A DNA stretch of 64,000 nucleotides from Stegostoma tigrinum (taxonomy: Eukaryota). The position numbers were made by a program, and so were the translations under genes. Location: positions 41,162,182 to 41,226,181 of the forward strand of contig NC_081376.1 of assembly GCF_030684315.1 (NCBI RefSeq), written 5' to 3'. Positions 7,002 through 64,000 of the stretch are shown here, piece after piece (the stretch's first letter is position 1; every line of letters starts with the position of its first letter). Under the pieces are notes generated by a model, which did no database searches, was not told the origin of the DNA, and saw only the letters and a list, made by a program, of their open reading frames with translations.

Positions 7002-7056
7002 CTTGGGAGGATAGTTGCCTCACGCTGTTGACGAACTGCTCCAAGGCGGACGCCAT
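7002..7056 (-). CDS. COPS3: COP9 signalosome subunit 3, coding exon 1 (remaining exons not found in the window)
   Basis: MASALEQFVNSVRQLSSQ-G is nearly identical to the human N-terminus; 55 nt followed by a GTAAGG donor. Confidence 0.95.
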
Positions 7057-7200: not shown

Positions 7201-7304
7201 GGTGTTACCAGAGGCTGATCTGAAGAAGGGTTACTGGACTTTGACTCTGCTCTTCTTTCACCTAACCCCCTCCCCCCAGGTGCTGCTATGTTCCTCTAGT
7301 GACT

Positions 7305-7845
7305 TATATTTTTGTTACAAGAGCCTCTTGTGGTACAGCCCCCACCTCTGGGCCAAGAAAGCCTAGATTCAGGTCCCATCTGCTTCTGAATGTGTCATAA
7401 CATGTTATAGACAATTTCTAAAGTTATATTACAGTAGGCTCTTGTGGTACCCTGGGTTCAAGTCCCACCCTGCTCCAGAGTTTGTATTAATAGTTTGATT
7501 AGAAAATAAGTTGATTAAAAATATCTAAATGAAAACAGAAGTTTTCTTCCAGGTCTGGTAGCATCTGTAAAGAAAAAAAATAATATTTCAGGTCTGGTGA
7601 CCCTTCCTCAAAAATTGTTTTCAGAGCTTTTGCAGCAACTTCTGTTTTTATTCCTGATTAACAGCATCTGCATTTTTCGTTTTTGGAAAATATCTAAAGC
7701 AATGTTACAAGAGGCTCTTCAAGTGCACTGGTAGTGTCCCCACTTATGATTGAGGAGACCCTGGGTTCCAGTCCCAGCAGTTTGCTGAGTTGTGTCATGA
7801 CACATCTGGATGGATTACTTTAAAAATATGTAAAGCTGTATTGTA
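7305..7845 (+). repeat. Three degenerate tandem tRNA-like SINE heads, with a PLE fold-back (7530-7686) inserted
   Basis: Repeated g.ctcttgtggtac..ggttcaagtccca..tgtcata/tga units; 12-bp TSD aaaatatctaaa at 7518-7529 and 7687-7698. Confidence 0.6.
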
Positions 7846-9825: not shown

Positions 9826-12800
9826 TAGAACATAGAACATAGAACATTACAGCACAGTACAGGCCCTTCGGCCCTCGATGTTGTGCCGACCTGTCATACC
9901 GATCTCAAGCCCATCTAACCTACACTATTCCATGTACGTCCATATGCTTGTCCAATGACAACTTAAATGTACCTAAAGTTGGCGAATCTACTACCATTGC
10001 AGGCAAAGCGTTCCATTCCCTTACTACTCTCTAGTAAAGAAACTACCTCTGACATCTGTCCTATATCTTTCACCCCTCAATTTAAAGCTATGTCCCTTGT
10101 GCTCGCCGTTAACATCCGAGGAAAAAGGCTCTCCCTATCCACCCTATCTAACTCTCTGATTATCTTATATGTTTCAATTAAGTCACCTCTCAACCTTCTT
10201 CTCTCTAATGAAAACAGCCTCAAGTCCCTCAGCCTTTCCTCGTAAGACCTTCCCTCCATACCAGGCGACATACTAGTAAATCTCCTCTGCACCCTTTCCA
10301 ATGCTTCTACATCCTTCTTATAATGCGGTGACCAGAACTGTACACAATACTCCAAGAGCGGCCACATCAGAGTTTTGTACGGCTTCACCATAACCTCTTG
10401 GTTCCGGAACTCGATCCCTCTATGAATAAAAGCTAAAACACTGTATGCCTTCTTAACAGCCCTGTCAACCTGGGTAGCAACTTTCAAGGATCTGTGTACA
10501 TGGGCACTGAGATCTCTCTGCTCACTTACACTGCTAAGAATCTTACCATTAGCCCTGTACTTTGCCTTCCGGTTACTCCTACCAAAGTGCATTACCTCAC
10601 ACTTGTCTGCATTAAACTCCATTTGCCACCTCTCAGCCCAGCTCTGCAGCTTATCTATGTCTATCTGCAACCTACAGCATCCTTCGTCACTATCCACAAC
10701 TCCACTGACCTTCGTGTCGTCTGCAAATTTACTAACCCATCCATCTACGCCCTCACCCAGGTTCATTTATTAAAATGACAAACAGCAGTGGACCCAACAC
10801 TGACCCTTGCGGTACACCACTAGTAACTGTCTCCAGGATGAACAGTTCCCATCAACTACCACCCTCTGTTTTCTGTCAGCAAGCCAGTTTCCGATCCAAA
10901 CCGCTATATCTCCCACAATTCCATTCCTCCGCATTTTGTACAATAGCCTATTGTGGAGAACCTTATCGAACTCCTTGCTGAAATCCGTATACACCACATC
11001 AACCGGTTTACTCTCATCTACCTGTTTGGTCACCTTCTCAAAGAACTCAATAAGGTTTGTGAGGCACGACCTTCCCTTCACAAAACTGTGCTGGCTATCC
11101 CTAATCAATTTATTCTTTTCTAGATGATTATAAATCCTATCACTTATAACCTTTTCCAACACTTTACCAACAAGTGAGGTAAGGCACACTAGTCTATAAT
11201 TACCAGGGTTGTCTCTACTCCTCTTCTTGAACAGGGGAACCACATTTGCTATCCTCCAGTCATCTGGCACTATTCCTGTAGACAATGACGAGTTAAAGAT
11301 CAATGCAAAAGGCTCGGCAATCTCCTCCCTGGCTTCCCAGAGGATCCGAGGATAAATCCCATCCGGCCCAGGGGACTTATCTATCTTCACCATCTGAAGG
11401 CTTTCTAGTACCTCTTCCTAGTGAACCTCAATCCCACCTAGTCTAGTAGCCTGTATCTCAGTATTCTCCTCGACAACATTGTCGTTTTCTAGAGTGAATA
11501 CTGTTGAAAAATATTCATTTAGCGCCTCCCCTGTCTCATCTGACTCCACACACAACTTACCACTACTATCCTTGATTGGGCCTAATCTTACTTTTGTCAT
11601 TTGTTTATTCCTTAAATGCCTATAGGAAGCCTTAGGGTTTACCCTAATCCTATCCACCAACAACTTCTCAAGTCTCCTCCTGGCTCGTCTGAGCTCTCTC
11701 TTTAGGTCTTTCCTGGCTACCTCATAGCCCTCAAGTGCCCTAACTGAGCCTTCACATCTCATCCTAACATAAGCCTTCTTCTTCGTCTTGACTAGAGATT
11801 CCACCTCCTTCATAAACCACGGCTCCCGCACTCTACAGCTTCCTCCCTGCCTGACAGGTACATACTTACCTAGGACACACACGAAGTTTGCCTTGAATAA
11901 GCTCCACATTTCTACTGTGCCCATCCCCTGCAGTTTCCTTCCCCATCCTATGCTCCCTAAATCTTGCCTAATCGCATCGTAATTGCCTTTCCCCCAGCTA
12001 TAACTCTTGCCCAGTGGTATACACTTATCCCTTTCCATCACTAAAGTAAACATAACAGAATTGTGATCGCTATCACCAAAGTGCTCACCTACTTCCAAAT
12101 CTAACACCTGGCCAGGCTCATTACCCAGTACCAAACCTAATATTGCTTCGCCCCTTGTTGGCCTATCTACATACTGCGTCAGGAAGCCCTCCTGCACACA
12201 CTGGACAAAAACTGACCCATCTATAGTACTCAAACTATAGTGTTCCCAGTCAATATTTGGAAAGTTGAAGTCCCCCATGACAACTACCCTGTCTCTCTCA
12301 CTCCTATCGAGAATCATCTTTGCTATCCTTTCCTCTACATCTCTGGCACTATTGGGAGGCCTATAGAAAACTCCCAAAAGGGTGACCTCTCCTTTCCTGT
12401 TTCTAATCTCAGCCCATACTACCTCGGTTGACGAGTCCCCAAACATCCTTTCTGCAACTGTCCTTGACCAACAGTGCCACACCTCCGCCCCTTTTACCAT
12501 CTTCTCTGTTCTTACTGAAACATCTAAATCCCGGAACCTGCAACAACCATTCCTGTCCCTGCTCTATCCATGTCTCCGAAATGGCCACAACATCGAAGTC
12601 CCAGGTACTAACCCATGCTGCAAGTTCACCCACCTTATTCTGGACGCTCCTGGCATTGAAGTAGACACATTTCAAACCAACTTCTTGCTTGCCGGTGCCA
12701 TCTTGCTTCCCTGGAACTTTATTCTGGACCACCCTACTCTCAACCTTTTCTATAGTCGAACTACAATTTTGGTGCCCATCCCCCTGCTGAATTAGTTTAA

Positions 12801-13250
12801 ACCCACCCAAATAGCCTTAGCAAATTTCCCCCCGAGGATATCGGTACCCCTCTGGTTCCGGTGAAGACCATCTTGCTTGTAGAGGTCCCACCTACCCCAG
12901 AAAGAGCCCCAATTATCCAAGAATCCAAAACCCTCCCTCCTGCACCATCCCTGTAGCCAAGTGTTCAACTCCTCTCTCTCCCTATTCCTCACCTCACTAG
13001 CACGTGGCATGGGCAACAAACCAGAGACAACAACTCTGTTCGTCCTAGCTCTCAGCTTCCACCCTAGCTCCCTGAATTTCTGCCTTAAATCCCGCTCTCT
13101 CTTCCTACCTATGTCGCTGGTGCCAATGTGGACCACGACTTGGGGCTGCTCTCCCTCCCCCTTAAGAATCCCAAAAACACGATCAGAGACATCACGCACC
13201 CTGGCACCTGAGAGGCAACACACCAACCGCGAGTCCCTCTCGTCCCCACG
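9826..13250 (-). mobile_element. Near full-length, relatively young CR1 LINE (partial ORF1 esterase; ORF2 APE endonuclease + RT) with a few frameshifts and stops
   Basis: SGNH-type ORF1 (12792-13226), APE motifs YFNARS/ISETW/MGDFN/SDHN, RT motifs KSPGPDGI and KFADDTK; (atgttct)n 3' tail at 9826-9847. Confidence 0.95.
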
Positions 13251-13339
13251 AGAGAGATATCAAAGATCAAAAAACGCAAATTTCTGTCTCTTGTACCAAC
13301 TCCTCAGACACGCATTCATCTGCTTTATCCTGCTATTCC

Positions 13340-15559: not shown

Positions 15560-15800
15560 ACATGATCCCTCCCGAGGATTTGCAGACATTGCCTCGATTG
15601 GACGAGAACGCTGCAAAACCCCGGGTGCCTTTATAGCTTTAAGAGGAGGGGGCGTAATTTCCGGAGATTAAATGAGCGGTCACTTACAGTTGTTGCATTT
15701 GGAAAGAAGCTTGTCCGTTTTGGAGGCGCCGGAAGGTGTGACTTTAATCATTGCAGAATACTGAAGTATTTTGATCTCTCGCTTAAATGCAAATCCATTT
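15560..15800 (+). promoter_or_regulatory. Probable NT5M promoter
   Basis: CpG-enriched; GC box ggggcg at ~15650 and ETS-like ccggaag at ~15729, just upstream of exon 1. Confidence 0.5.
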
Positions 15801-16011
15801 TATTTGGTCACTGTACAAGTAAACAGTACAGAATTACCACTCCGATGTAAACTACCCGCAAACCAAGGGAATGCAGGAATATACCGACGGCTACCTCCAT
15901 TGAATGCATATGACTATATGACACTGTGCTTCCTCTTTCCTATGAATGCAAAAACAAAAACGAATTCGGCTGTCGGAGGATTGCTTTGCATTTTGCCCTC
16001 TGTACCCGAGC

Positions 16012-16278
16012 ATGATCTTCCTAGCTCGACTGGCAAATCTCCGGAGATCCGGGTACAAAGTGCTCGGCGCAATGACCAAGTGTGTTTGTGCAGGGCATCA
16101 CACCGCTGGAACTAGGCTGCGGGTGCTGGTCGACATGGACGGGGTGTTGGCTGATTTCGAAGGCGGATTCTTGAAAAAGTTCAGGGACACGTATCCCAAA
16201 GATCCCTATATCGAGCTGCAAGATCGCAGAGGTTTCTGGGTTTCAACACAGTATGGAGAATTGCATCCTGATCTCTGT
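16012..16278 (+). CDS. NT5M: Mitochondrial 5'(3')-deoxyribonucleotidase, exon 1
   Basis: Arg-rich presequence followed by RVLVDMDGVLADFEGGFL (HAD DxDxV motif); 267 nt; GTAAGT donor. Confidence 0.95.
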
Positions 16279-19200
16279 GTAAGTGAAAGGCGACTGCTGC
16301 AGGAATTTGATCTTATCTTTGCACATGCAATATCACAGCAAGAGTGTCACTCCCACACTACTGGTGCTCCCCACTCCCACGCTTTACACCTGCAATAAAA
16401 TAACTGTTTCTTGTAAGAAAGTGCATGCCAGTCATTAGCAATTGACAGTGTTAATTAGCAGATTAAAATAAAAACAATGAATGCCTGAAATGTGATATAT
16501 ATAAAGCTCCTGACGCACACAGCTGGTCGTCCATCAATGGAATGAGAAATACACAAGCTTCAGTTGTATTACTTTTCACTAATCATGACCAAGGCCAGCA
16601 AGTATTGAGAGGCCCTAAGCTGTGTCAAGCTTAAGAGGGTCCTTTGCATTTCCAAAAATAGCATTAATTAAAAAGGACAATGAAGATAGAATGTTAAACC
16701 TTTGAATATGCTGAGGTTAAGGTGCATCAAAAAAACTAATTAGAACATATCTTGTTAGATTACTACCTGCATTATGAAATACTTTTGAGTAAAAATACTT
16801 TAGGATTTCTTAGCCTGGAGTGATTATCTACTGTGCCAAAATGGGCCGCATGCATGTAAGGCCTAAGACATCATCTGGCTGCAAAAAGCAACACAAATCA
16901 CATGAGCCACTGACACCGCCATATTTAATATGCAGTGATATCAGCATCATGAATTAAAAATCACTATTGGAGAGAGAGGTGGTTGTGAGTTTAAACTGAG
17001 AGTCACCATGCCCCAAGTAAGCAGCCAAGTTGCAAAAGTGAGACCTTCATGAAGACCTCATCTGGTACTGGAATCGACATTGTGCAACTGGCATTACTCT
17101 GCATTGCAAACCAGTCATTCTGCCAACAGAACTGCCAACCCCCACATCATCAGTACGTGCGCTGCTGAGGGTCTGGAGAGGGTGAGGGTAAAAGGGAAAT
17201 GGAGGCTGGGTGTGACAATGTGGAGCTTCCCCTTCCCCAGCAGGATCAGGGACAAAGGCCAACACCAGGATTGAAACAGGGAGAGGCCTTCACTAGGAGC
17301 AGGATGGGAGGCCTGCACTGGGAGAGGGAGGGGGAAAAGGCTGGCCTCGAGAGGCAGTTTCCATTACCAGCATGGGTGGTGAATGCAGTTTTTTGGTTAA
17401 TGAGCAGGATGACCTGGAGTGAAATTAAGCTGTTTTTTATTTAATAATCTGAAGAACATTTCTAAATGCACAGTTCGGGCTGCACTATCTCTGAGACAGG
17501 CTACTGCTCTCCATCACTAACCACTCTCATCGGCTTTCCCTTGGCACATATTATCTGCAGGTGGCATTCTGCAAGTCATGTCCTTCTGAATTTATGATGT
17601 TGAAAACTCTCATGTCTGGAGAGATGAGCAATTACTCAGATCAACACCAATGAAATGGGAACAGCACGACAACCAGCAACAAATTTAAAACATTTTCTTA
17701 TTAATTTTTAAACAGCAGTGACACTGATGCTACCCACACATGTATGAAGCTTATCATTTTCGATGCTTGGAAGTGCTTTATTTCTTTAACAAGGTTAATG
17801 TCACCATCTTCAGGATAGTCTTTTCTTAAAAGCTTCATACGTCTCCTTTTTGAAGCCATCAAAATCAATTAAAAACACAAAATTGCTTGTAACATTCTCA
17901 TATATGATTACCCTTTCCTTCATGTCAATTTTAAGTACACCCAATCTAGAAATCAATGATTTCTCTTGAAATCTGTCTCTTGAAGAAAGCACATTGCCAT
18001 CATTGACTTCTATTTCTTTTTTCTTTATTCACTCGCTTACAATTTGCATCAAGCAGTTTTTCTTTTGTTTTGAATTCAATGCCATCGAAACCTTTCAGGT
18101 TTCTTCTGGAAGTGAGTGAGTGACGTGCAAAGTGCAGCGTATGTACTGAAGGCTAACTGTGCATTCTGTAGCAGCATGGTGGGTTTATGAAGGTGATCTG
18201 ACAACCAGTTCCAAAGTTTCTCCTGTAGAATGCCACCTTCTCTCCTTGTTCTTTTTCAATGCTATCAGTATGGAGATGAGTAACAGCATCAAAGAATTGA
18301 GCCATGACTCTCAGCTAGGGTTATGATAGCCTTTGCATGTCTTTCTCACCTAGCTTCAGAGAAATGGTTTGGGTCAAAGGAATCAGCACACCGAAGTGTA
18401 CAATCCAGTGTTTTGCAGAGACAAAGAATAATGTGTAAATTGTTGTGCAACTGCAGAAAAAATACAGCAACTAGATAGCAATCAACTGTAGACAACAAAG
18501 TTCAGGAATGTCCAGCAAAGGAGATACATAACGTGCTTATTTTCCCTAGAACGTTTTGCTGTATTATCATATGATTGCCCTCAGTACTTAGTGAAATAAG
18601 TGTGACAGTAGATTATCCTGCCGAGATAATTCTGCACCTTGCTGGCCATATTCCCTCCACTATGCTCTGCTAATTCAAGGAAAGTTCAGAGAGTGTTCGA
18701 TGGGAAACCATCATCAAGTGCCACACATCTTATAGTAACAGTTAATCCACATGTGAAAGATCTGGTGTCGAGTCAACAAACAAACTTAAGAAACCTGCTT
18801 CTTCAAGTCATCCAAAATAAATCTTCTTACATTTTGAGACATTGGCTGAGTGATTTCCTCACATTTTGTTTTAGATGATTATGAAAGCTTCCCAGATCCA
18901 TAGTTTCTATAACTTTTTATGTTGTTGGCAAGAAATGGATAAGACTGAGCAATGAGTTCTATCAAGCCAAGAAAGTTCCCATTATGTGCCAAGCCAAGCC
19001 TTTAATTGCCTCCCCTAAAGTCTAGTTCATATCCAGTTATTGTGCCCACAATTGCAATAACACTTTCGAGTTTGTCTGATGAATATTAAGCACAGCCTTC
19101 ATTCAGTTCGAGAGCTGTCTCTGTGTCGAAAGTTTGGGTGTCTAAGCCCTGCCTCAGAGACTTTGACAAAGAACTTAACTGGCAGTAGTCAGAGAGTATA

Positions 19201-21540: not shown

Positions 21541-21660
21541 ACTGACAACTGCAAATAATTAAGAAGATAATACTACAATAAAAAGGGAAATTTGCAATTC
21601 TTTTCATCTTTCTAATATTACTGTAACAGTATTTGGACTTCATTTTCACTCTGTTCACAG

Positions 21661-21775
21661 TATGCCTGGGTAGAGAAACATTTTGGTAAAGAGTTTCTGG
21701 AGCTAATGGTACTAACTCAGGACAAAACACTGGTATCAGGCAATTTGCTGATAGACGACAAACCAGATATATCAG
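21661..21775 (+). CDS. NT5M: NT5M exon 4
   Basis: YAWVEKHFGKEFLELMVLTQDKTLVSGNLLIDDKPDIS; 115 nt; AG/GT boundaries. Confidence 0.95.
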
Positions 21776-23328
21776 GTAAAATAAGTGATCAAAGTGTTTT
21801 CAATTTAAGTGTTTGCATCGATAAAAATGCCATTGGATGTTAACCAATTTATACAAAAATGTCTGTATATTTTGAAATGGAAACCTTGAAGCAATTCCAA
21901 CCAATCCTATGATTTAACAAATAAGATTGCAATTTAGTGTAGTATCAATATTTGTTCCTGGTTCACTAAGTAAAAACCAACATTAGAAGGGAATACTGTA
22001 TTTGTTACAATCAAAACTATATCCATAAACATTTAATGTATGGATATAGCCATGGGGCACTTATGGTGTAGTGGTAGTGTCCCTACCTCTGAGGCCTGGG
22101 TTCAAGTCGCACCAACACCAGATGTGTGTAATAACATTTCAAAACAGGTTGATTAGGAAAATATAGCATGCTGAAAAATGTAGCTTGTTGATCCCATTCC
22201 ACTATTCATAAGATCATAGCTGAACTGATTTGTGGCCTTAACTCCAGTTTTCTCCTTGTCCTTGGCAACTTCGCTGACTAGGAGATCTTTTACTGCCCAT
22301 TCTTAATAATCCAGATAGACAGTTAGGAGTCAACTTGGGTCTGGAGTTTTATTAGGTCATATGGTTTTTAAGTTACTGTTTTATTCCAGATTTATATTGA
22401 ATTCAAATTTCATTATTTGCAGTTGTGGAATTTAAACCCACATCCTCAAAACATTAACCTGGGGTTGTATGTTGCTAGTCCTGTGACATTACCACTATGA
22501 GTGCAGCTCCCCCAATGACCCAGTATCCAGTGCTCACTGGGTAGAGAATTGCAAAGGTTATCAACTTTAAAACAAAAGAAATTCATCATAATTTTTGCTT
22601 GTGACCTATCATACCATTTATTACAAAATTAATGCAGAAAGCGCATGGGATTCTTTGGAATGATAGGAATATGTCTCATTATCACATCAGAGGGAACATA
22701 ATATCGAACATAACATACTTTTTGCACAGGCTAAACAAGTTTGTTCACAAATTACTTCCAAATAAAAGAGGAATAGGTGTGATATTGAATTATTCAAAAC
22801 AGAAACAGTGCAGAAAGGTGTAAATGAATGGGCCAGAGGACTTACATTTCTTAAGCGAATTGTATCATGAAGGTTACTTGTGAGAAGAACCTCTACCAGC
22901 TGTACACATAAGAAGCCTCAAGCCTACGATCATTGATTGCCTGACAGTAATCCTGCTAGTCGGGGTGTTTTGGTTTGGAGCAGGATACGCAATGTGCAGT
23001 CAGGGAAAATAAAAGGGATTTTCACTAAAAATCAATGATCATTGATGCAGCCAATTCAGTTTTAGAATGGATCTCTAGTGCACTGCTCCAGTTGTAGAAC
23101 TCCACACTTTTCATTTATTAATGGGCCAGGTTCTTTAATGCAGTTTGGAGGTTCAAGCTTATCTACACCAGTGCCCCACTCCACTAGCCAATAAATTCTG
23201 ACTCTAGTTCTCAGAGGAGTTTAGTATTTCACAGTGCAGTTTTTTTTGTACCATCTGATCTGTGTTCAAAATGATTTTGAAAACAATGCCTCTCATTTAC
23301 AGCGCCAATTGCCAATTGTATTTTGTAG

Positions 23329-28670: not shown

Positions 28671-28684
28671 ACTGCCTAATCTTT

Positions 28685-30225
28685 ACTATAGTCATGGAGA
28701 GGGTTAGGGGCAGATGGTATGGGAAAGTATTTAATTGGGGCCGGGGGAATTACAATGCTATTGGGCAAGAACTGTGGAGCATAAATTGGGGTAAGATATT
28801 CTCAGGGAAATGCACAACAGAAATGTGGAAATGTTTAGGGAGCACTTGCTACGAGTGCTGGATAGGTTTGTCCCACTGAGGCACGGAAGGGATGGCAAGG
28901 TGAAGGAATTTTGTATGACAAGACGTGGAGCATCTATTCAAGAGGAAAAAGGAAGTTTTCTTAATGTTGAAGAAATAAGGACCGGTCAGGGCTGTAGAGG
29001 GTTATAAGGTAGCCAGGAAGGAACTGAAGAATGCACTTAGGATAGCTAGAAGGGAGCATGAAAAAACCTTGGCAGGTAGGAGTAAGGAAAACCCTAAAGT
29101 GTTCTATACTTATATAAGGAACAAGGGGATGGCAAAATGAGAGTAGGGCTGATCAGGGACAGTGGAGAGAACTTGTGTGTGGAGTTGGGCGAGGAAGGGG
29201 AAGTCCTGAATGAATACTTTCCTTCAGTATTCACTGGTGAGAGGGAGCTTGTAGTTTGTGAGGACAGCGTGAAACAGGCTGATATGCTCGAACAGGTTGA
29301 TGTTAGCAGGGAGGATATGCTGAGAATTTCAGAAACATGAGAATAGATCAGGCCCCTGGGCCATATGTGATCAACCCACGGTTGCTACGGGACGTGAGGG
29401 AAGAGATTGCTGCACCTTTGGCAATGAACTTTGTGTCTTCACTGTCCACTGGAGTAGTATCAGAACATTGGGGGGATGGTAAATATCATTACCTTGTTCA
29501 AGAAAGGGAATAGGAATAATCTTGGGAATTACAGACCAGTCAGTCTTACTTCTGTGGGGGGCAAATTATTGGAGAGGATTCTGAGAGATAGAATTTATGA
29601 TTATTTGGAAAAGCACAGTTTGATTAGACATATAGTCAGCATGGCTTTGTGAGGGACAGGTCATGTCTCACAAGCCTTATTGAATACTTTGAGGATGTGA
29701 CAAAATACATTGATAAAGGTAGAGCAGTGGATGTGGTATATATGGAGTTTAGCAAGGTATTTGATAAGGTTCCCCATGGTAGTCATGGGTTCCAGGGAAA
29801 TTTGGCTATCTGGTAACAGAATTGCTGTCCAATAGAAGATAGAGGCTGGTAATAGACGGAAAGCATTCAGCCTCGAGCTCGGTGACCAGTGGTGTTCTAC
29901 AGGGATCTGTTCTGGGACCCTGTTCTTTGTGATCTTTATAAATGACTTGGATAAGAAAGTGGGAGGGTGGGTAAGTTTGCTGACGACACAAAAATTGGTG
30001 GAGTTGTGGATAGTGTGGAGGCCTCTTGTAGGTTACAATGGGACATTGACAGGATGCAGAACTGGGCAAAGAAGTGGCAGATAGAATTCAGCCCAGAAAT
30101 TTGTGGTGATTCATTTTGGAAGGTCGAATTTGTATGCAGAATTCAGGGTTAATGGCAGTGTGGAAGAACAAGGAGATCTTGGGATCCGCACCTATATTTC
30201 CCACAGCTAGCACCCAAGTTGATAA
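28685..30225 (+). mobile_element. Degraded CR1 ORF2 fragment
   Basis: WGRGNYNAI, VLNEYFPSVFT, GNYRPVSLTS and KFADDTKIGGVVDS. Confidence 0.9.
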
Positions 30226-31722: not shown

Positions 31723-34700
31723 GGGCAATACAGAGGCTCAGTGTTTAGCACCACTGTCTCACAGCACCAGGGAGCCAGGTGCAATTCTAGCCTTGGATGA
31801 CTATGTGGAGTTTGCACATTCTCCCTACATCTGCATGGGTTTCTCGTCTGTGCTTGGTCTCCTCCCAGTGTAAATGTGCAGGTTATGAGCATTGACTATG
31901 CCCGTTTATCCAGCCAATCATCAATAGCCACAGGTGAGATGCCAAAACACTTGGTGCTACTATTTAGGAAAGATGGTAAGGAAAAACCAGGGAACAATAG
32001 ACTGGTGAGCCTGACATTGGTGGTGAGCCAGTTGTTGGAGGAAATCCTGAGGGAGAGGATTTACATGTATGTGGAAAGGCAACGACTGATTAGGGATAGT
32101 CAACATGGCTGTGGGAAATCATGTCTCACTAACTTGATTGAGTTTTTTTGAAGAAGTCATGAAAACGATTGATGAAGGCAAAGTGGTTCAAGGACTTCAA
32201 TAGGGCATTCGAGAGGGTTCCTCATGTTTGAGTGGTTAGCAAGGTTAGATCACATGGAATACAAGCAGAACGAGCCATCTGGATACAGAACTGGCTCAAA
32301 GGTAGAACACAGATGGTGGTAAGTGGAGGTTTGATTTTCAGATTTGAGCCCTGTGACCAGTGACATGCCACATGGCTTGGCGTTGGATCCACTGCTTTCA
32401 ATCATTTATATAAATGATTCAGATGTGAACATAGGAGTTATGGTTAGTAAATGTGTAGATGACACTAAAATTGGAGGCATAGAGGACAGGGAAGAAGGTA
32501 ACCTCCTCAGAGCATGATGGAATCTTGACCATGGGCCAATGGGTGGCAGGTGGAGTTTAGATAAATGTGCAGTGCTGCATTTTGGGAATGTAAATCAGTG
32601 CAGGATTTATACACTTAATGATAACATCTTGGGGAGTGTTACTGAATGAAGAGACCTTGGAGTGCGGGTTCATAGTTTGTTGAATGTAACAGTACAGGGC
32701 CATCAGCCCATGATATTGTGTCGACCTATTATCAAACACAGATAAAACTACCCTGCATACCCTACATTTTGCTATCTTCCATGTGCCGATCCAAGAGTCG
32801 CTTAAACGTCCCTAATGTATCTATTTGACCCCACTACCATCGCCGACAGGGCATTCCATGCACCCACCACTCTGCGTTAAGAACCTATCTCTGACATATC
32901 CCCTATACCTTCCTCCAAAATTATGCCCCCTTGTAACAGTCATTACTGGCCTGGAAACAAGTCTCTGGCTATCCAATCTATGCCTCATCACCTTGTAAAC
33001 ATTTATCAAGTCACCTCTCATCCTTCTCACTCCAAAGAGAAAAGCCCTAGCTCCCTTAACCTCTCCTCGTAAGACCTGCTCTCCATTCCAGGCAGCATCC
33101 TGGTAAATCTCCTCTACACTCTCTCTAATGCTTCCACATCCTTTCTATAATGAGGTGACCAGAACTGAACACAATATTCCAAGTGTGATCTAACCAAGGT
33201 TTTATAGAGCTGCAGCATTAGCTCACAGCTCTAAAAGTCAATTCCCCTGCCAATGAAAGCCAACACGCCATATGCCTTCTTAACAACTCTTTCAACTTGG
33301 GTGGTAACTTTGAGGGATCTATGGACGTAGACCCCACGATCCCTATATTCCTCCACACTGCTAAGAACCCTGCCATCAACCCTGTATTCTGCATTCAAAT
33401 TCAACCTTCCAAAGTGAATCACTTCACAATTTTCCAGGTTGAATTTCATCTGCCACTTCTTTGCCCAGCTCTGCAACCTTGTCAATGTCCTGTTGCAACC
33501 TACAACAGCCCTCCACACTATCCACAGCTTCATCAACCTTTGTGTCATCAGCCAACTTACGAGTCTAGTCTATAAACAGACAACATGGTGAGCAAGTCAA
33601 CAACCTCAACCACAACACGAGCTACAATTAGATGTCAGGGTAGAACGAATGACGAATGAAGAATTCCAAACCACAGTAAACAGGAAGGCAACCCACAGTG
33701 ACGTCACCCCAACGTCCACAAAAAAAGCTGTGTTAGGTCACTATTCAAATGGGCTGCAACCTACTGCAACACACCTGAACTTCGCAAGGAGGTAGAGCAC
33801 CTATACAAGGTTTTTGCTATCAATGGATACCCCACCAACTTCATCCGCAGGTGCCTACTAGATAGACAACACCAAGAGGACACAATATACCCTAATACAC
33901 CAGCCACACTACCGTATGTCGAGAACATATTAGAACTGACAAGAAGACTCCTACAACCACGAGGAATCGGGATAGCACATAAATCCACTGCCACACTATG
34001 ACAAACACTCACAAGGACCAAAAACCCTATACCCATGACATTCAGAACCAACACAGTGTAGAAAAATACAGTGCAAGGACTGCCAAAAACATTACATCAG
34101 CCAGAAAGGAAGGAAACTAGCCATCAGGATATATGAACACTTGTAGCAAACGACACAATGAACTTTTCTTCACTTCAGTGCACTTGGACAATGAAGGCCA
34201 TCGATTTAACCGGAACGACGTGACCATCCTAGCTCAAGCCAACCATGAATACGCATGGGAATTCCTAGAGGCCTGGTTCTCCACCCATTATGCAATCAAC
34301 AGACATGCGGAATTAGACCCCTTGTACAAACCCTTGCCAAAAAGAACTATAAAAGACACAAGACATCTCAACAGACCACATCATATAAATACTAAGCAGA
34401 GTATAACAACATCGCTTCATTGGAGGCTACACTGATGATGTTACCTCACATGGTTACATAACGTCTGAACTATAACTAGCCAGCTTGGCGAGCAAGTCAA
34501 CAACATTACCCACAACACAAGCTACAAATCTTTGCAAGAACCTAATGGGTGTAGGTTTAAGGAGAGAGGGGATTTAAAAAGGACCTAAGGGGGACCATGC
34601 AGATTGTGGCGCAAATATGGAATGAGCTGCCAGATGAAGTAGTGAAAGCTGGTACAATTATATTCAAAAGGCATTTGGATGGGTATATAAGTAGGAAGGG

Positions 34701-46305: not shown

Positions 46306-47911
46306 CTGGAAAGTCGTGGTGGGATGGGGATTAGGAAAACAGGACAAGACAAATATACACATGACCCCGAGACACCTGAATATTTAATGTTGTTCCTCCC
46401 CATCATTTAAAAACAAACAGAAGTCCCAGCTAAAGGGGGAAAACAGGCAAAGTTGAGGTCTTCACAAAGGCTGAAAGTAGTAAGTCAAGTAGTAACTAGT
46501 ATGAGTAAGAATAAATATTGAAAAACCTGTTGGGTGATTAGTTGTAAAATAGGTAAGAATTAGTTAGCGTGCAACCTAGAAAGGGGCAATTTTAATTTTA
46601 ACAAGTTCCTCATCTTCTAAATGGCTCACTGGTAAACTTACTCTTATGAAATTGAGTCAAATAGATTTCAATTCTTGGCCTGAGCCGCATTCAAAATTTA
46701 AGCTAAGGCTCCAACAATCGGCTGCAGATCATTATCTGAACACTTCCCCCAACAGGAAAATTCCAAGCTTTATCACAGATTAGAGGTAAAAGGCTCAGTT
46801 GTTACATCTTTGACAGTTTAAAAAGAGTCTGTTGAAGCTCACTGCTTAGGCTTAAAATTTCAATAGTGGTCAATTAGACCAAGACCTGGAGGGAACCTGG
46901 TGCCCATGCAACTTTGGCCCAGCTGCAATCAACATTATCAGGAGACGACAGGTGAAAAGTAATTGAAGGAAAGAGTCCTCAATGTAAAATTACAAAACTT
47001 GTAAGTAATCAAATAATCTAACATTTATACATTTCTGAATTAGTCCACCATTCAACTTTTTACCAAAATAAAAATAAATTAAAATAGTTAGCCCAAGAAG
47101 AAAACTTAAAAATTGTTAGAAAGATTACGTTGCATACACTTAGAACAATATCTATTTTTCTACGGATGCTTTTTTGAAATGAAACGGAAAAAGCCTGTTA
47201 CACTACCCCCCACCAGTCTGAAAGACAGATCAAGGAAAAGCTGGTACAAAATCAAATTAAGCAGGGGAAAACGTCAAGAACAGTGAAGAGGAGACTCGTT
47301 CATGAGACTAATAATTTCAATGTCCAACTTCAACATTTCACTCCATTCGAATTCCCTGCAAGGAAATAACAGCAATGTACCTCACAATTGCAGATACTGC
47401 AAACAAGATGGTTCTTCTCATTTTATTTTTGCACATGATTCTGGCATTGCTGGCGAGCCCAACATTTGTTGCCCATACCCAAATGCCCTTGATTTAAATA
47501 GGCATTTTAGAGTTAATTATGAGCAATTATGAGTGAAGCACATTACTGGAAGGAGCAGTGAACCAGATGGTTTTTATTTAAAAATGCCAACTGATGGTCA
47601 TTTCATGGCTCGGACCTTGACAGTAGCCTTATAATCCAAATTATCCAATTTTACTAGCTGCGGCAGAATGTGAACGTCTCCAAGTCATTCAATTTGGCTT
47701 GTGGATATTACCACTATCCCACCACTTCCTACCCGAGAGTTCGCAGGTGGGATTTTAGTTAAAGAAAGCACTTGAAAAAAGTGCAAAGAATCGGATCAAG
47801 ACTTGCAAAAGTTACCTAAGAGTATAACAATAATAATAAAAAATTGAAGATGGTGTAACAGCTAGAGCTTTGTTAATTATATACTATATGTGAAAGAAAC
47901 GAACTTACTTT

Positions 47912-49233
47912 TTACCATACCTCACCTTCCTGGACCCCTCAGTCTCCATCTCAGGTAACCAGCTAGAAAGTGATTTCCATTTCAAGCCCACTGATTCCCA
48001 CAGCTACCTAGAATACACCTCCTCCCACCCACCCTCCTGCAAAAATTCCATCCCCTATTCCCAATTCCTCCGCCTCTGCCGCATCTGCTCCCACGATAAG
48101 GCATTCCACTCCCGCACATCCCAGATGTCCACGTTCTTCAAGGAGCGCAACTTTCCCCCCCGCAGTGGTCAAGAACGCCCTTGACCGCGTCTCCCGCATT
48201 TCCCGCAACACATCCCTCACACCCGGCCCCCGCCACAACCGCCCCCAGAGGATCCCCCTCGTTCTCACATACAACCCCAATCTCTGGATTCAACGTATCA
48301 TCCTCCGACAGTTCCGCCATCTACAATCCGACCCCACCACCCAAGCCATTTTTCCATCCCCACCCTTGTCTGCCTTCCAGAGAGACCACTCTCTCCGCAA
48401 CTCCCTTGCCCGCTCCACACTCCCCTCCAACCCCCGCGCACCCAGCACCTTCCCCTGCAACCACAGGAAGTGCTACACTTGCCACCACACCACCTCCCTC
48501 ACCCCCATCCCAGGCCCCAAGATGACCTTGCATATCAAGCAGATGTTCACCTACACATCTGCCAATGTGGAATCCTGTATCCATTGTACCCAGTGTGGCT
48601 TCCTCTACATTGGGGAAATCAAGCAGAGGCTTGGGGACCGCTTTGCAGAACACCTCCGCTCAGTTCGCAACAAACTGCACCTCCCAGTCGCGAACCATTT
48701 CAACTCCCCCCTCCCATTCCTCAGACGACATGTCCATCATGGGCCTCCTGCAGTGCCACAATGATGCCACCTGAAGGTTGCAGGAACAGCAACTCATATT
48801 CCGCTTGGGAACCCTGCAGCCCAATGGTATCAATGTGGACTTCACAAGCTTCAAAATCTCCCCTTCCCCCACTGCATCCCAAAGACAGCCCAGCCTGTCT
48901 CTGCTTCCCTAACCTGTTCTTCCTCTCACCCATCCCTTCCGCCCACCTCAAGCCGCACTTCTATTTCCTACCTACCACCTCATCCCGCCTCCTCGACCTG
49001 TCCGTCTTCCTTGGACTGACCTATTCCCTCCCTACCTCCTCACCTATACTCTCCTCTCCACCTATCTTGTTTTCTCTCCATCTTTGGTCCGCCTCCCCGT
49101 CTCCCTATTTATTCCAGTTCCCGCTCCGCATCCCCCTCTTTGAAGAAGGGTCTAGGCCCGAAACGTCAGCTTTTGTGCTCCTGAGATGCTGCTTGGCCTG
49201 CTGTGTTCATCCAGCTACACACTTTGTTATCTT
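47912..49233 (+). mobile_element. Penelope-like element (Neptune-type), 5'-truncated: RT C-terminus, Cys linker, GIY-YIG endonuclease and terminal repeat
   Basis: IPYSQFLRLCRICS, CNHRKCYTC and CIHCTQCGFLYIGEIKQRLGDRFAEH; hammerhead-like motif at 49140-49170; candidate TSD gaa(c/t)ttacttt. Confidence 0.9.
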
Positions 49234-49389
49234 GAATTTACTTTGGTAATGTTCATGTACAATTTGTAAAAGAAAAGCACTTGCATATATTGAATATAAA
49301 AGTAGTTTTTTTTAAAAAGCAATTTCATGACCAGTACCATCACAGGATCATTAAGATTAGTACAAAGACAACTATTTTCAATTGATATT

Positions 49390-49555
49390 GAGTTTTGAGA
49401 AGATTTGTAGCTCAGGTTGAGGTTCTGGATGGGAGTTTTCTCGCTGAGCTGGAAGGTTAGTTTTCAGACCTTTCGTTGGAGGCTCACTGATGTTACCTAG
49501 AATGGTGACGAAACATCTGAAAACTAACCTTCCAGCTCAGTGAGCAAACTCACAT
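49390..49555. mobile_element. Short PLE (Poseidon-type) fold-back insertion
   Basis: 11-bp TSD caattgatatt at 49379-49389 and 49556-49566; inverted terminal-repeat halves. Confidence 0.8.
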
Positions 49556-49584
49556 CAATTGATATTTTTGAAAGATCTTTCTTT

Positions 49585-50324
49585 ACGAGTTTTGAGAAGA
49601 TTTGTAGCTCAGGTTGAGGTTCCGGATGTGAGTTTGCTCGCTGACTTGAAGGTTAGTTTTCAGACCTTTCGTCACCATTCTAGGTAACATCAGTGAGCCT
49701 CCGAAGCGCTGGTGTTATGTCCCGCTTTCTATTTATCTGGTTAGGTTTCCTTGGGTTGGTGATGTCATTTCCTGTTCTTTTTCTCAGGGGATGGTAAATT
49801 GGCTCCAAGTCAATGTGTTTGTTGATGGAATTCCGGTTGGAATGCCATGCTTCTCGGAATTCTCGTGCATGTCTGTTTGGCTTGTCCTAGGATGGATGTG
49901 TTGTCCTAATCAACGTGGTGTCCTTCCTTATCCGTACGTAAGGATACGAGTGATAGTGGGTCAATGAACATCGACATGACCCACTATCACTCGTATCTTT
50001 ACATACAGATAAAGGAAGGACACCACTTTGATTGGGACAACACATCCATCCTAGGACAAGCCAAACAGACATGCACGAGAATTCCTAGAAGCATGGCATT
50101 CCAACCGGAATTCCATCAACAAACACATTGACTTGGAGCCAACTTACCATCCCCTGAGAAAAAGAACAGGAAATGACATCACCAACCCAAGGAAACCTAA
50201 CCAGATAAATAGAAAGCGGGACATAACACCAGCGCTTCGTCAGAGGCTCACTGATGATGTTACCTAGAATGGTGACGAAACGTCTGAAAACTAACCTTCC
50301 AGTTCAGCGAGCAAACTCACATCC
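49585..50324. mobile_element. Palindromic PLE insertion (two inverted 3' ends)
   Basis: 12-bp TSD agatctttcttt at 49573-49584 and 50325-50336; arms 49624-49963 / 49977-50324; 13-nt spacer; EFLEAWHS endonuclease tail. Confidence 0.9.
50248..50287 (+). ncRNA. Intact-looking minimal type I hammerhead ribozyme motif
   Basis: UCA-CUGAUGA-U-GUUACC-uagaau-GGUGAC-GAAA-CGUC|UGA: 6-bp stem II, 3-bp stem I and palindromic ACGU stem III. Confidence 0.7.
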
Positions 50325-50910
50325 AGATCTTTCTTTGTATTTCTAAGACTGTTTCCAGGGTAATTAGTGGACAAAAAAAATTGTACAAAATTCAGAACTT
50401 TGCAATACAGACAGTATACATAGTAACGAGCAGAACATTGTGTTTTGAACTTTTTATCCACAGAGCTAGGAGAATAAAACATTTTACCCGTGGTCATTAA
50501 TGATAATTAGCCAAGGCAAGAAGGTGACCATAATATATAGTGACAGCAGCACCACAACAATTTGGCTGTGGTTTTGGCTACCAATAAATGTGTAGGAGTT
50601 TTATATTGACAAAATCCAAATATGTCACTGCAACAGTCAACATTTCACTAACCAGCTAAAACTAAGCTAAGTAAACACCACTGTGAACTGTGTTGAGAAA
50701 TACCAGTCCTGCAAGCAAACACAAACACTTGGAAAAACTTAAATGATTGCACATTCCCACTTAAAATCCAAAAGTAAAAATAATTATTTTTGAAATTAAT
50801 TATGTAATTATACATAACCTTTTGTTACGTTCAATAAGAGTTCATTTCTTTTTATTCTTAGCATCTGAAAGACATTTCAAAGACAAGGTGCATTCAAAGT
50901 TTGATAGTAC

Positions 50911-51188
50911 CTTAAGACAATGTTAACTTTAGGAAATCCTTCCCATTTTTCTCTGCATTCTGGACATTCTGTTTTCCTGGAAGCGTCCCACCATAGTGCC
51001 AAACAATGTCGACAGAAACTATGTCCACAGTTTAGAGTGGTTGGGTTTACTAATATTTCGTAACAGCAATGGCAGGAAAATTCGTTGGCAGACAGCTGAC
51101 AGGACGGTTCCGGTAATGAACTATTCTCCAGCAGCTCCCACTGTTGCTTGTACTTTTGCCTATTAAGGAATCCCACGTCACCCTCCAT
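50911..51188 (-). CDS. BFAR: BFAR first coding exon (RING finger)
   Basis: EFSCHCCYEILVNPTTLNCGHSFCRHCLALWW..CPECREKWEGFPKV; acceptor at ~51243 implies a separate non-coding exon 1. Confidence 0.95.
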
Positions 51189-51314
51189 TTGATCACAAGA
51201 GAAGCTCCATAGGCTTGATTTTCATAGCACAGCATCTAGAAACTGTATTGAAAAGTGTACATTACAAAACATATTTTCATTATCAACTACAGGAAACGAC
51301 ATCACTTGTTTCAA

Positions 51315-55900: not shown

Positions 55901-56602
55901 TCCTTTACAGATTTATAGTGCAAAGTTTATAGTCTCCTCTCTGGGTCTGCTTAGCTAACAGATAGGGACACAAACTCCGCTTTATAACAACATTGATTTG
56001 CCTTTGTAATATTGTGGTTAGTGTAACAAAGTTAAACAAAAGTATAACGATAAGAGGTCAATACCTCCACCAGAGCCCCCCTTTTAAGTGAAATTCAGAA
56101 GCATTTAACACCGTTTTAAATCATCCGCCAAGACATCGCGATTTTAACTTTAGACGTTGTTTTTGACTCCAGCGTCACATGACAATTATTCCATTCACCC
56201 GCAGACTCTCCACTGGGATAAACGACGAAATAAGTAAAGCGCACAAGTGACCTGCAGACATTTAAAGCTTCGCAACAGGAACCACACCTCATCGATAGCA
56301 ACCAGTGACTTAGGACAGACAATACAACCAAGATCGACCCTCCTTAACTAATCAACGGCCACTTCATCAGGAAGTGTAGAAGGACGGTTTCGCTTGCGGA
56401 TTATCCCATAATATAGATTCCGTGGCATTTGCAGATCGCGAGATTCGTGGGGGCTTGGCCTGTGAATAACTCCTGATGGAGTGTCATATGAGAAAACAGC
56501 TTCAAGCTATTTAATCAGAAATGTACATGAGTGAAAGGGCTCAACGAGTTAAAAAAAAAACCTTTCATCTGCTCTAACCGAAAATTACGAAATCACAGAT
56601 AC

Positions 56603-56960
56603 CTTTCGAAATCAATTGCCTTTCTGCTACCATAACTCAATCTCCCATCGACTACATCTTCCCACTAAGGCCGCCATTAATGCTTCAGGTGAAGCCCTGG
56701 TCGCGAGCCCCTCCCATAACAAAAGGTCACGCACGTCAACAGGCACCGCCCTCCCAGCTCATTGGAGGGCCGCCTTCCATCAGCCAACAAATCGCACACC
56801 AGCCATCGCACGCGGTCCCCGCAGCGAGTGGCTGTGGCCAACGCCAATCAAAACAGAAGCCGATGATTGGCTCGTTCGTTGACGCCGCGACGGCAGAAGT
56901 TCGTGCACTCCAGTCCGGGACTTCCCTGGCGCTGCTGGGTGGAGAGAAACAAGACACGAC
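56603..56960 (-). promoter_or_regulatory. Probable BFAR CpG promoter and non-coding exon 1
   Basis: CpG-rich; CCAAT boxes at 56761, 56844 and 56866; YY1-like gccgccatt at ~56670; candidate donor AAG|GTATCT at 56603. Confidence 0.6.
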
Positions 56961-58086
56961 CCGGATTTCCCGAAAGATCTGGAATCAAAACAGAAAGACT
57001 GCTGCCTTATTTCAAAAACAAAGAAAAGACCTGAAGATGCTGGAAATCTCAACAGAGGTTGAAAAACTGAGCAGGCCTGGCATCATCTGCGGAGAAAAAG
57101 CAAAATTTCGAATTTCCAGTCAGCCTGCTGGCACTCGAATGGAAACAGAAAATTCTGGAATTATTCAGCAGCACCTATTGAGAGTCAAATAGAGTTAACA
57201 TCTCAGTCTTTATGACCTTTCATGAGAAGGGAACGTTAGAAATGCCTCATCATTGTCATTTAATGTCTCCTACATCCCATCTGAGCTACAGGTCACAACA
57301 ATCTTTTGGTTTCCATCTTTCCCTATTTTACTTTTATAAAACCTATACATGTATATATAAATCTTTCCAGTTGTGAGGAAAGGCCGTGATCTTAAACATC
57401 ACCTCTCCCTCCATATATGCTGTCAGACATGCTGGGTTTTCCAGTATTTTGTTTGTATTTTGGATTTGTGGCATTTGCAGTATTTTGGTGTGGTCTTTAT
57501 AATGACATCTTCCATGGACAAAAGCCTTGCTAGTCAGTGGAGTACTTTTGAACTGTAATGATTGTTGAAATGCCATATGGTAACCATTTTAAGAAGGGCA
57601 GGTGGCAGCATTAATTTGAACACAAACAACAATAAGCTAATTATCAAAAAGTTTTATTTATTGTTGCTTGAGGGATAATAATTGGGCAGTATAAGAGGAA
57701 TATAGCTCTCTCCTTCTCACATTCCTTTTTAAGATTGTACCAAGGGATTTTGCCTAAAAAAAGCGCATCCAATAAGCACTCACAGCAATCTTTCGCCAGA
57801 AGTGCTGAGTTGATAACTTGTCTCAGCATCCTCCCACATTACGGATGCCAGTCTTCAACCAATTCAATTCACTCCACGTGGTATCAAGAAATGGTTGGAG
57901 GCACTGGATGCTGAAAAAGCTATGGGCCCCAACAACATTTTAGCAAGAGTACTGAAAACTTGCATTTTGGAACTTGCCACTCCCCTCATCAAGTTGTTCC
58001 AGTGCAGCTACAACACTGGCATCTATCCAACAATGTAGAAATAGCACAGGTATGTCCGGTACACAACAGAAGGACAAATCCAACCT

Positions 58087-58189
58087 AAGATAACAAAGTG
58101 TGGAGCTGGATGAACACAACAGGCCAAACAGCATCTCAGGAGCACAAAAGCTGACGTTTCAGGCCTAGACCCTTCATCAGAGAGGTCTG
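58087..58189 (-). mobile_element. Solo PLE terminal-repeat fragment with hammerhead motif, inserted in a LINE fragment (57815-58230)
   Basis: 11-bp TSD aaatccaacct at 58076-58086 and 58190-58200; minus strand reads ctgatgaagggtctaggcctgaaacgtc. Confidence 0.8.
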
Positions 58190-60960: not shown

Positions 60961-61559
60961 GAGGTGTTTACTTAGACAGTTTCTTTAGAAACTTAGGTGT
61001 AAGGTTCTAGATTACAGAGCTGCCATTTGCCAGGTGAGATAAATCAAGGATGAACACTTTGAACATGTAATGACATCAGATTTGAAAGTTATGGAGAACA
61101 GTACCCGAGGGGTGGGAGAAAAAGATTGTTTGCAATACGCTAGCAAAGGGAAGGTGAGGAGCCATTTAGTGCGGATAAGGTCACATGAGCAGGATATTTA
61201 TATGGCTTTTTAATTCTTTAGAAGAAGCATAAGAGCACAATATGGTGCCTTAATGTCAATTGACAAACAGTAAAAATAAGAACAAAAACAAATTTGCTGG
61301 AAAAGCTCAGCAGGTCTGGCAGCATTTGTTTCTGATTTACAGCATCCGCAGTTCTTTTGGTTCTTAAAAGTACCTCCTTTTGGAAGGACACAGCTAAGGG
61401 CGAACTAAACCACAAACAAAGAAAGCTTATAAAATTAAATAATATTGCATTTAGAATTTAAGTGTAATGATATTGTACGTTCGTTTTTAAACACATATAT
61501 AGATGCATATTAACTTTGAACTTAGAATGTCTTACGGTGAGTGTTCTACCATGAGTGCC

Positions 61560-61695
61560 CTTAACCACGTGCTCATTGTGTTCACCGGAAGTGACTGCAG
61601 AGTGAAGATTAAAGGGCAAAGGTTGAAGGTGGCGGTGTTGTTCCTGTGTGTTGTGTGAGTGAGTGAGTGAGAGGAGGAGGTTTGTTTGGGTAGCT
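61560..61695 (+). promoter_or_regulatory. PARN promoter/5' UTR
   Basis: E-box CACGTG at 61566-61571, ETS/GABPA ACCGGAAGTG at 61584-61593, and a downstream GC-rich island. Confidence 0.65.
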
Positions 61696-61714
61696 ATGGA
61701 GATCACCAGGCAGA
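61696..61714 (+). CDS. PARN: Poly(A)-specific ribonuclease, 19-nt coding exon 1
   Basis: ATGGAGATCACCAGGCAGA|GTAAGT gives MEITRQ (human MEIIRS, also 19 coding nt as recalled); head-to-head with BFAR as in human; not in the ORF track. Confidence 0.8.
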
Positions 61715-64000
61715 GTAAGTTCGAGAGGGACAAGTCTTTGGGCTCTGGGTTAGCGGATTAACGGGGGAGTCGGGACAGGAGTGTGTAGGATGCGGATGCG
61801 GTGAAACCCAAGCGGTTGGGGCCGCTTTGGAGGCAACGTTTCATTTTTGGGCCCAGGCCGGAGTGTTCGGCTGAATGCAGAGCCCCGCGTGGGTCGGGGT
61901 CAGGGGGAAAGGGCTGGGCTTTTAAGGACTTATCGATAGGGTTCGGTGCAAGGAGGGGGAGGGGGGGATGGTTTGTGTGGCGGTACCTGTTGACAGGGTT
62001 CAGTGTAAAGGAAAAGTGATAACCTGCGGCACATCCGCTCCTTCCACGTGAGAACAAGCTGTTCTTCCCGCCCCCCACTCCGTGTAGTCAATATTTGCGA
62101 AGTGCACGTTACACTTTTGCCTCTATCCTCTTGACCTCCTCTGGGCAGCCGCTGTAAAGTCCCTGGTCGCATTGATGTTTCCACGCCTCTTTGCATTTGA
62201 CTGTACGAAGGCGTAAAGCTTCATGGTACCTACTGTAAACGAAATACATGCTTTTATTTAATGCCTTTCATAGTCTCAGGATATCGCAAGGTGCTTTACA
62301 GCCTGTTAAGTATTTATTGATGTGTAATCTTTGATCTAATGTTGCTAAGAGTTATGTGAAATTCCTCTGATTTATAATTTGTGTGAAGCTGTTTTTTAAT
62401 TTGTAAGTAATATGTATAACGTTCAGCTGTCAGTAATGGTTCCCAAATTATTTTCTGCAAATAATAAATAAATCTGGGCCAGCAGTGCTGCTGCACCAGC
62501 TTTTCTGACTCTTATTCTGCTGTAGTGAATCTCCCCTTTTGATCAGTTCCTATGAAAAGTTTAATGTTCAAACAGTCTGCTTGCTCCCTCATTTGTATGC
62601 ATTGGTTGGATAATGAAGGAAGGAATTGGCTTGATCTGAAAAATGCAAAGTAGTGAATGGATTACAGTTATTTTTAAAATGTATATCTACACAAGACCTC
62701 TCATGATCTTGATGTCTTGAAGTGCTTTAAAGTAACTTAATTAAATGTTGAGATGTGTAGTATAGAAAAGGTGACAATCAAGTTTGTTCATTGTTCTACA
62801 AACAGTAAGATGATTGTGACCTGAAAACAACCACATTATTACTGAGTGCTGTAATGTTCAGGGCACTGTGAGGACTGCCCTGCTCTTTGATTTATGCACT
62901 GAGATCTTTCTCATTCACATAAGGCTGACAGTCTATCTGGTTTGCAAAACCAAAACTGAGGATCCTGAAGTTCTGAAAGAAAGAGGAGTTGCTAGAAAAT
63001 CTCTGCATCTGTGGAGAGAGATCAGTTAACATTTTGCGTTCAATTCTGAGGAAAGATCACTGAACCCAAAATATTAATTAATTTCTCTCCACAGATTTGC
63101 TGATATTTTCTGGCAATTTCTGTTTTTGTCTCCATTTTGTGTTTTATGTAAATATGACATTTCTGACCATGGCATACTCTCTCAGCACAATACTGAAGTT
63201 TCAACAGTCTTGTACTCTAGTGTCTATCGTAGGACACGCCAATAATCTCTCTGACTCAAGTGAGCATATTACAATTTGTGCTGCAGCCGATAACTGAGTC
63301 TATTTCAGTTGGCTTTTCTTTCCTCCAGGAATAATAATATGGTAGAAGTGAGTGGACCAGCACTATTCTGGTATTTGGACTGAAGCATTATTTTTGTTTC
63401 CTTGACACACAAGAAAAGCAGGAATTTGACCTGCATTTTACTGAATTAATTGCTGTAATATTTGAGTCTCTACTTGAATAGTGACTTGACAAAATGCCAC
63501 TGAGCCATTCCTGTGCTGTTGAGCATATTGAAATATTTTTAAGGATCTTTATGTACCTCTAACAATTAGAGCTGACAGTCAATCTGACTTCATTTGTTTG
63601 GCTTGAATTCTTACTGTACAAACTGGCAAAGCTATTACATGTAACAGTAACAACTTGTATAATGTCTGCAACATAATAAAAGGCACAGATATGCTCATAG
63701 GTGCATTATAATGTAAAAGTCACACCTAGACTAAATTTATTCAAAATGCAGCGAATATTGCTAAACTAATTTCTGGGATTGTCCTGTGAGGGAAGTTTTA
63801 AGCATAGGGTGATCAAATAAGTTTTTAGAGTCAGCAAAAGCCTGGAATGGTTATTGTAGAGAAAATAAAACAAAAACCAAGAATTAGTTTAGGAAAAATA
63901 GAAAAGCTGTAAATGAAAGTTGAAAGCAGCAAAAATGCCAAAGTCCTCCAATACCAAAATCAAATTAGAGTAGTTTTTTAAATTAAGAGCATTGTACCTA

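Follow-up and report, generated by a model that had tools for sequence, protein, structure and literature searches.

The long palindrome within an intron of BFAR in Stegostoma tigrinum is most probably a pair of 3' ends, mirror images of each other, from a Penelope/Poseidon-type element of sharks, likely placed there by one insertion event and without host function, a reading to which we give a probability of roughly 0.88. The head-to-head arrangement is already well described for Penelope elements and the insertion itself is ordinary; as it stands, it is one more dead Penelope copy with little wider weight. A Penelope origin accounts jointly for the palindrome, its ribozyme and its spacer. 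An earlier, sequence-only reading of this DNA had missed that origin; its expectation of long dsRNA holds at the level of prediction, and its proposal of selection on the ribozyme finds no support below. Throughout, the window is the whole 64,000-nucleotide stretch that was analysed, insertion B is the long palindrome (arms 49624-49963 and 49977-50324) and insertion A is a short neighbouring palindrome (49390-49555).

BFAR lies on the minus strand, where tblastn with the BFAR proteins of sharks recovers 6-7 exons between 51221 and 38377. Its RING-finger exon (50911-51221, the 5' limit being the limit of homology rather than a mapped splice site) is 95% identical to BFAR of Carcharodon (white shark), matches the Pfam RING profile and is followed by an intron donor GT at 50910, with the acceptor AG ending at 46305. 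Insertion B begins 586 nt inside this 4.6-kb intron, close to the 600 nt past the splice donor near the RING exon that had been estimated from the letters. The closest relatives of both the gene and the palindrome's repeat are sharks. A CpG-rich island at 56251-57250 is likely the BFAR promoter, and further islands of this kind lie at 6251-7500, 15751-16500 and 61501-62250.

When aligned, the arms of insertion B agree in 331 of 348 columns and differ by 9 substitutions and 4 indels; between them lies a 13-nt spacer (49964-49976), in keeping with the arms of about 340 bp and the 13-nt spacer first described. The spacer, on the plus strand, is likely extra sense Penelope sequence belonging to the right arm. 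Its region reads in frame as N-E-H-R-H-D-P-L-S, the counterpart in the Stegostoma protein P0122 being I-H-E-H-Q-L-A-T-K-R-H-D-P-L-S, and on the basis of this protein comparison and one older copy the spacer probably represents Penelope sequence that has lost 5 codons (15 nt) in frame. Thus, the arms would have been joined almost directly. A foreign loop as spacer was rejected on the same in-frame reading as Penelope protein, being the less likely account.

Both arms of B are Penelope ORF and pLTR sequence. The tail-bearing arm (49587-49963, minus strand, sense to BFAR) is a 5'-truncated Penelope/Poseidon end holding the last part of the GIY-YIG ORF, the pLTR and the tail, and it matches P0122 residues 261-375 at 74-82% identity and the shark protein P0121 at 95% (tblastn). 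The tail-less arm (49977-50324, plus strand, antisense to BFAR) is the same end, matching P0122 residues 259-382 at 83-89% by tblastn. Both arms, across one frameshift, translate into the end of the GIY-YIG endonuclease (the last ~120 residues of P0122, at 74-89%). The palindrome region is matched by 60 of 153 PLE-like proteins at E<=1e-3; a Pfam scan of the arm peptides themselves gave 0 matches. P0122 itself has weak Pfam RVT_1 and GIY-YIG matches, below cut-off, and a profile-free search with it of a representative library returned 694 proteins at E<=1e-30, the named relatives coming from Stegostoma, Chiloscyllium and Rhincodon. Both Pfam domains were found in 3 of the 6 long relatives scanned, with GIY-YIG below cut-off, and it is through P0122 and these long relatives that the domain order of EN+ PLEs, RT followed by a C-terminal GIY-YIG, can be recognised.

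Read by eye, P0122 and its relatives have no cysteine-rich (Zn-finger-like) linker before the endonuclease, the feature that separates Neptune/Nematis from Penelope/Poseidon (PMC8557442). This would fit Penelope/Poseidon over Neptune, and the clade call rests on P0122-type relatives, the RT being truncated away in both arms of B. In the literature searched, we found no published description of the palindrome's shark Penelope family; shark ribozyme families may be listed in the supplementary material to PMC4209133 and to the retrozyme preprint cited below. Two annotated shark proteins, P0121 and P0123, end in the family's endonuclease fragment, from which we predict exonisation of the repeat in Stegostoma and Chiloscyllium genes.

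The ends of the insertion carry a further signature. Only the tail-bearing arm of B has the tail, 34-37 nt long (49587-49623, minus strand) and extending past the point where the right arm ends, and the same extension is found in the left arm of insertion A and in an older copy at 34 kb. Insertion B is flanked by a 12-bp target-site duplication (left copy 49573-49584, right copy 50325-50336); among 20,000 random flank pairs, 7 shared a word of at least 12. Insertion A, which belongs to the same family, is a palindrome of 166 nt that ends about 20 nt short of B on its left side. Its tail-bearing arm (49390-49476, minus strand) comprises the 3' half of the hammerhead, with a C->G change, the end of the pLTR and the tail, and is 94% identical to 49587-49672; the tail-less arm (49478-49555, plus strand) is joined to it over 4-5 nt of microhomology at the centre. 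A has its own 11-bp duplication (left 49379-49389, right 49556-49566), the tail is again on the left side only, the outer ends are as in B, and tail and end positions agree between the two insertions to 1-4 nt. Across the window, flank duplications of 11-15 nt were seen for 4 of 8 elements examined (chance of at least 11: 11 of 20,000) and were not found for the other four, whose ends were guessed (6170-6320, 62980-63125, 33565-34545 and 47800-49235). The duplications of A and B were read from the filled site alone.

These features are those of EN+ PLE insertions, for which the published anatomy is a head-to-head inverted pLTR with an optional 31-bp tail and an 8-10-bp TSD (Arkhipova et al. 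2013, PMC3846280), and a tail of 30-40 bp carried by one of the two ends (Craig et al. 2021, PMC8557442). As in those accounts, B is a 5'-truncated inverted copy joined head to head, B and A each have a tail of 30-40 nt at one end only and a short duplication, and the C-terminal GIY-YIG end lies inside the repeat of B. Unlike the insertions described there, both copies in B are cut to about 350 nt and the whole insertion is palindromic, and the shark duplications are 11-12 bp against the published 8-10 (PMC3846280).

The mechanism that we prefer is inferred from work on the Anolis Poseidon element PAc (Frangieh et al. 2024, PMC11167929), which describes a protein able to cut AT-rich DNA on both strands and extend each of them, with two RT start sites bounding the tail. 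At the BFAR locus, the element's GIY-YIG endonuclease would have nicked the two strands of the AT-rich intron at positions staggered by 12 bp, and reverse transcription would have started from two internal sites about 35 nt apart, giving one arm with a tail and one without. Both cDNA copies would then have stopped early and been joined head to head, and gap filling would yield the 12-bp duplication. Like PAc, B has a pLTR hammerhead and two end positions a tail apart, and the AT-rich PAc target with ATT (PMC11167929) has its parallel in the ATT within A's 11-bp duplication; unlike PAc, the shark locus holds dead fragments only, and the likeness is one of description rather than of sequence alignment. 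A's duplication sits just past B's tail, a position that would fit re-insertion beside an existing tail in this one case.

Self-priming has been proposed for Penelope inverted ends (PMC3846280), the formation of which is still described as undefined (PMC8557442), and it is possible as the origin of the inverted arms here. It predicts, however, that the arms were identical at insertion, and one ribozyme position differs between the arms in A and B alike, with G in the arm that has the tail and C in the arm that lacks it, which counts against self-priming. A more specific scheme, in which the arms of each insertion were copied from two RNA templates primed at two nicks, without cDNA fold-back, and in which the tail of the first insertion directed the second to a site just beyond it, is one that we put forward tentatively and consider doubtful. 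Arm discordance, if true across many shark copies, would separate self-priming from two-template priming.

The ribozyme sequences bear on when the two arms came to differ. The right arm of B contains a complete minimal type-I hammerhead core on the plus strand (50251-50284), with a 6-bp helix II that forms in the MFE fold, a G10.1-C11.1 pair, palindromic 15/16 and a predicted cut after 50284. In the left arm, sense to BFAR, the corresponding minimal hammerhead (49663-49693, minus strand) is broken, having lost 3 nt from the CUGAUGA box and acquired a C->G change at 49666, which removes the self-complementary helix III word. The sequence-only reading was therefore right that the plus-strand core is intact and that the BFAR-sense copy lacks three core nucleotides and carries a substitution. 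A minimal hammerhead in the pLTR is itself a feature of EN+ PLEs, and the core at 50251-50284 shares with the minimal PLE hammerheads of Cervera and De la Pena 2014 (PMC4209133) the extra unpaired nucleotide before helix II, between 9 and 10.1, the G10.1-C11.1 pair and palindromic 15/16 without a loop 3. Pairs of such ribozymes on opposite strands 100-700 bp apart are also described there, as in B; what differs is that helix II is 6 bp in the shark core, which is known here from sequence alone.

On the comparison with relatives, the intact core is the ancestral state, because P0122 reads through both hammerhead boxes in their intact form and P0121 and the older copy at 34432 read through the 5' box. 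Searches of other kinds returned little: no Rfam family reached its gathering score anywhere in the 64-kb window, the 23-nt ribozyme-stem pattern had 0 matches in each of three collections (metagenomes, prokaryote genomes and viruses), which is no surprise for DNA from a shark, and the left-arm peptide had no short homologue among protein records, and thus none with the deleted allele, which is weak evidence either way.

Both lesions recur in insertion A. Its plus-strand hammerhead (49487-49517), antisense to BFAR, has the same 3-nt loss as the left arm of B together with a private CpG change, and its minus-strand arm has the C->G. Because each lesion is thus found again in a separately duplicated insertion, the lesions most likely pre-date the insertions, having been variants of the source copies, a reading that rests on the four arms of A and B. 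The three allele pairs that could be resolved (intact-C, deleted-C and deleted-G) form a nested series in which no change needs to have arisen twice, as would fit variation among the source copies. In vitro, the Poseidon protein still inserted RNA with a dead ribozyme (PMC11167929). The lesions may alternatively be shared through gene conversion at the locus, or through copying from B to A there.

A wider form of that last possibility is that one Penelope end was inserted and that the mirror arm, or insertion A, arose later by local rearrangement or by gene conversion templated on B. Both of A's lesions are present in the left arm of B, A resembles B with its centre deleted at the microhomology, and A's right arm and B's left arm are inverted and 109 nt apart. 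Nevertheless, we consider this unlikely, given that A and B have separate flanking duplications, that A's right arm has C where B's left arm has G, that A lacks the private changes of B's left arm near the pLTR end, and that the tail asymmetry agrees with the known insertion signature.

The sequence-only reading had suggested that the broken core reflects selection against cleaving the host transcript, that is, that the ribozyme in the BFAR sense was damaged once it had inserted, or that only insertions broken in sense were tolerated, since the pre-mRNA would be cleaved by an intact copy. The cores counted within BFAR are intact in 0 of 2 sense and 1 of 3 antisense copies, a difference in the direction proposed and far too small a sample to test; the counts come from motif scans, which miss more diverged copies, and leave out the minus-strand core at 58180, which is intact but lies past the CpG island (56251-57250). 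The idea also gains from the depletion of tandem retrozymes in Xenopus introns (bioRxiv 10.64898/2026.07.22.740005) and from the anole PLE ribozyme, which cleaves with its protein present and needed that protein (PMC11167929). Against it, both lesions are common to insertion A, 2 of 3 antisense copies are broken too, the 3-nt loss is a trinucleotide-repeat contraction of a kind that arises easily by slippage, and monomeric minimal hammerheads were reported inactive, cleavage by a single one being undetectable in vitro and dimers cleaving little (PMC4209133). Moreover, the hairpin is predicted to bury the core whether broken or intact. We therefore find selection for this purpose improbable, and the broken copy more likely arrived broken than was selected by the host.

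Folding was predicted for both strands. In BFAR pre-mRNA the complementary arm is transcribed ahead of the BFAR-sense core, and the broken core is predicted to be paired to that arm with P=0.97. On the plus strand the intact core is sequestered with P=0.90 when the long palindrome is folded by itself, and partly so once the fold includes insertion A (P=0.42 outside, 0.26 in its own stems). We predict that the ribozyme at 50251-50284 would need a dimer partner; its sole nearby same-family partner on the plus strand is broken. Self-dimer energies of the 10-nt core words, at about -3 kcal/mol for both arms of B, are uninformative. In the literature searched, part of it covered by listing alone, we found no published comparison of sense and antisense intact hammerhead cores in introns, and the main text of the retrozyme preprint (bioRxiv 10.64898/2026.07.22.740005) contains no orientation analysis. 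Such a comparison would show whether minimal ribozymes cut in vivo.

Movement of the whole palindrome as a non-autonomous unit, MITE-like or retrozyme-like, would explain why A and B have outer ends and a left-arm allele in common. We judge it very improbable, however, since the centres of A and B differ by about 570 nt of truncation, the ends are asymmetric with a tail on one side, tandem intact ribozymes are absent, and a second family in the window (645-868) has the same build with a different centre. A MITE or DNA transposon was rejected specifically because the tail makes the ends asymmetric, where symmetric terminal inverted repeats are expected, and the arms are retroelement ORF. Non-LTR retrozymes (bioRxiv 10.64898/2026.07.22.740005) are, like B, PLE-derived, hammerhead-bearing and non-coding, but their units are repeated in tandem, head to tail, and include two or more complete ribozymes, whereas B is head-to-head with one, and B was rejected as a retrozyme on that ground. 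Finally, although palindromes are a known class of assembly artefact, an assembly or fold-back read error is almost certainly not the explanation, as fold-back would give identical arms and those of B differ by 9 substitutions and 4 indels and come with a target duplication and a one-sided tail.

B illustrates how Penelope insertions in sharks place ready-made hairpins of ~350 bp in introns. The BFAR-strand RNA of 49587-50327 folds at -646.8 kcal/mol, a value reached by 0 of 20 shuffled sequences (-206.9 +/- 7.3), and the central 141 nt of B fold as DNA at -56.4 against -14 +/- 2.6, with 0 of 200 shuffles as good. As fold predictions, these agree with the long dsRNA that had been proposed for the pre-mRNA and, where a cruciform had been suggested for the DNA, with a DNA hairpin. 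The predicted intronic hairpin of ~345 bp would bury the ribozyme and leave with the intron. An excised nuclear intron would limit the access of Dicer or sensors. Inverted Alu pairs, said to be ADAR substrates of the inverted-repeat type, are two independent insertions, while the arms of B come from one. Like the inverted-repeat ADAR substrates described across animals, B is a young intronic inverted repeat with predicted long dsRNA, and, young repeats being the main A-to-I targets in that survey (PMC9989829; shark not among its animals), A-to-I editing of the hairpin is by analogy likely, and would be ordinary. The 9 substitutions between the arms of B show no clear A-to-G signature.

At the DNA level, mismatches between the arms lie 21-35 bp from the palindrome centre and both arms survive, which suggests that the palindrome is tolerated. 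Spacer length and divergence reportedly reduce the instability of inverted repeats, according to one study.

Several other elements lie in the window. The second Penelope-like palindrome (645-868) is head-to-head with ~97-nt arms that are 96% alike, both of its hammerhead cores are intact, its tail is on the left arm only and its flank duplication is 11-15 nt. Whichever strand were transcribed, the RNA would include an intact core in the sense orientation. No host gene was found in its surroundings when 208 stop-free frames were scanned with Pfam, and this palindrome is therefore unusable as an orientation control. The same second family has a solo pLTR end at 58088-58189 (minus strand), cut off a few bases upstream of the core; its hammerhead is intact and it has a duplication of 11 bp. 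Two more decayed palindromes lie at 6191-6296 (80% self-complementary, matching the second family) and 62980-63125 (75%).

An unrelated Neptune-like PLE occupies the same BFAR intron (47894-49234, plus strand, antisense to BFAR); it is 5'-truncated, has a cysteine-rich linker before its GIY-YIG and a hammerhead core altered at 49140. The older relative of the palindrome's own family (33565-34545, plus strand) is about 70% alike and retains remains of the RT thumb and GIY-YIG and a partial upstream pLTR, with a decayed hammerhead at 34432 and an ORF broken by stops and frameshifts. A LINE at 10080-13259 (minus strand) has Pfam matches to an esterase-type ORF1, an apurinic endonuclease and an RT, and a diverged inverted relative of it lies at 28679-30155. 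A second host gene is indicated by an exon at 21616-21840 (plus strand) with a 5'-nucleotidase (NT5C) Pfam match.
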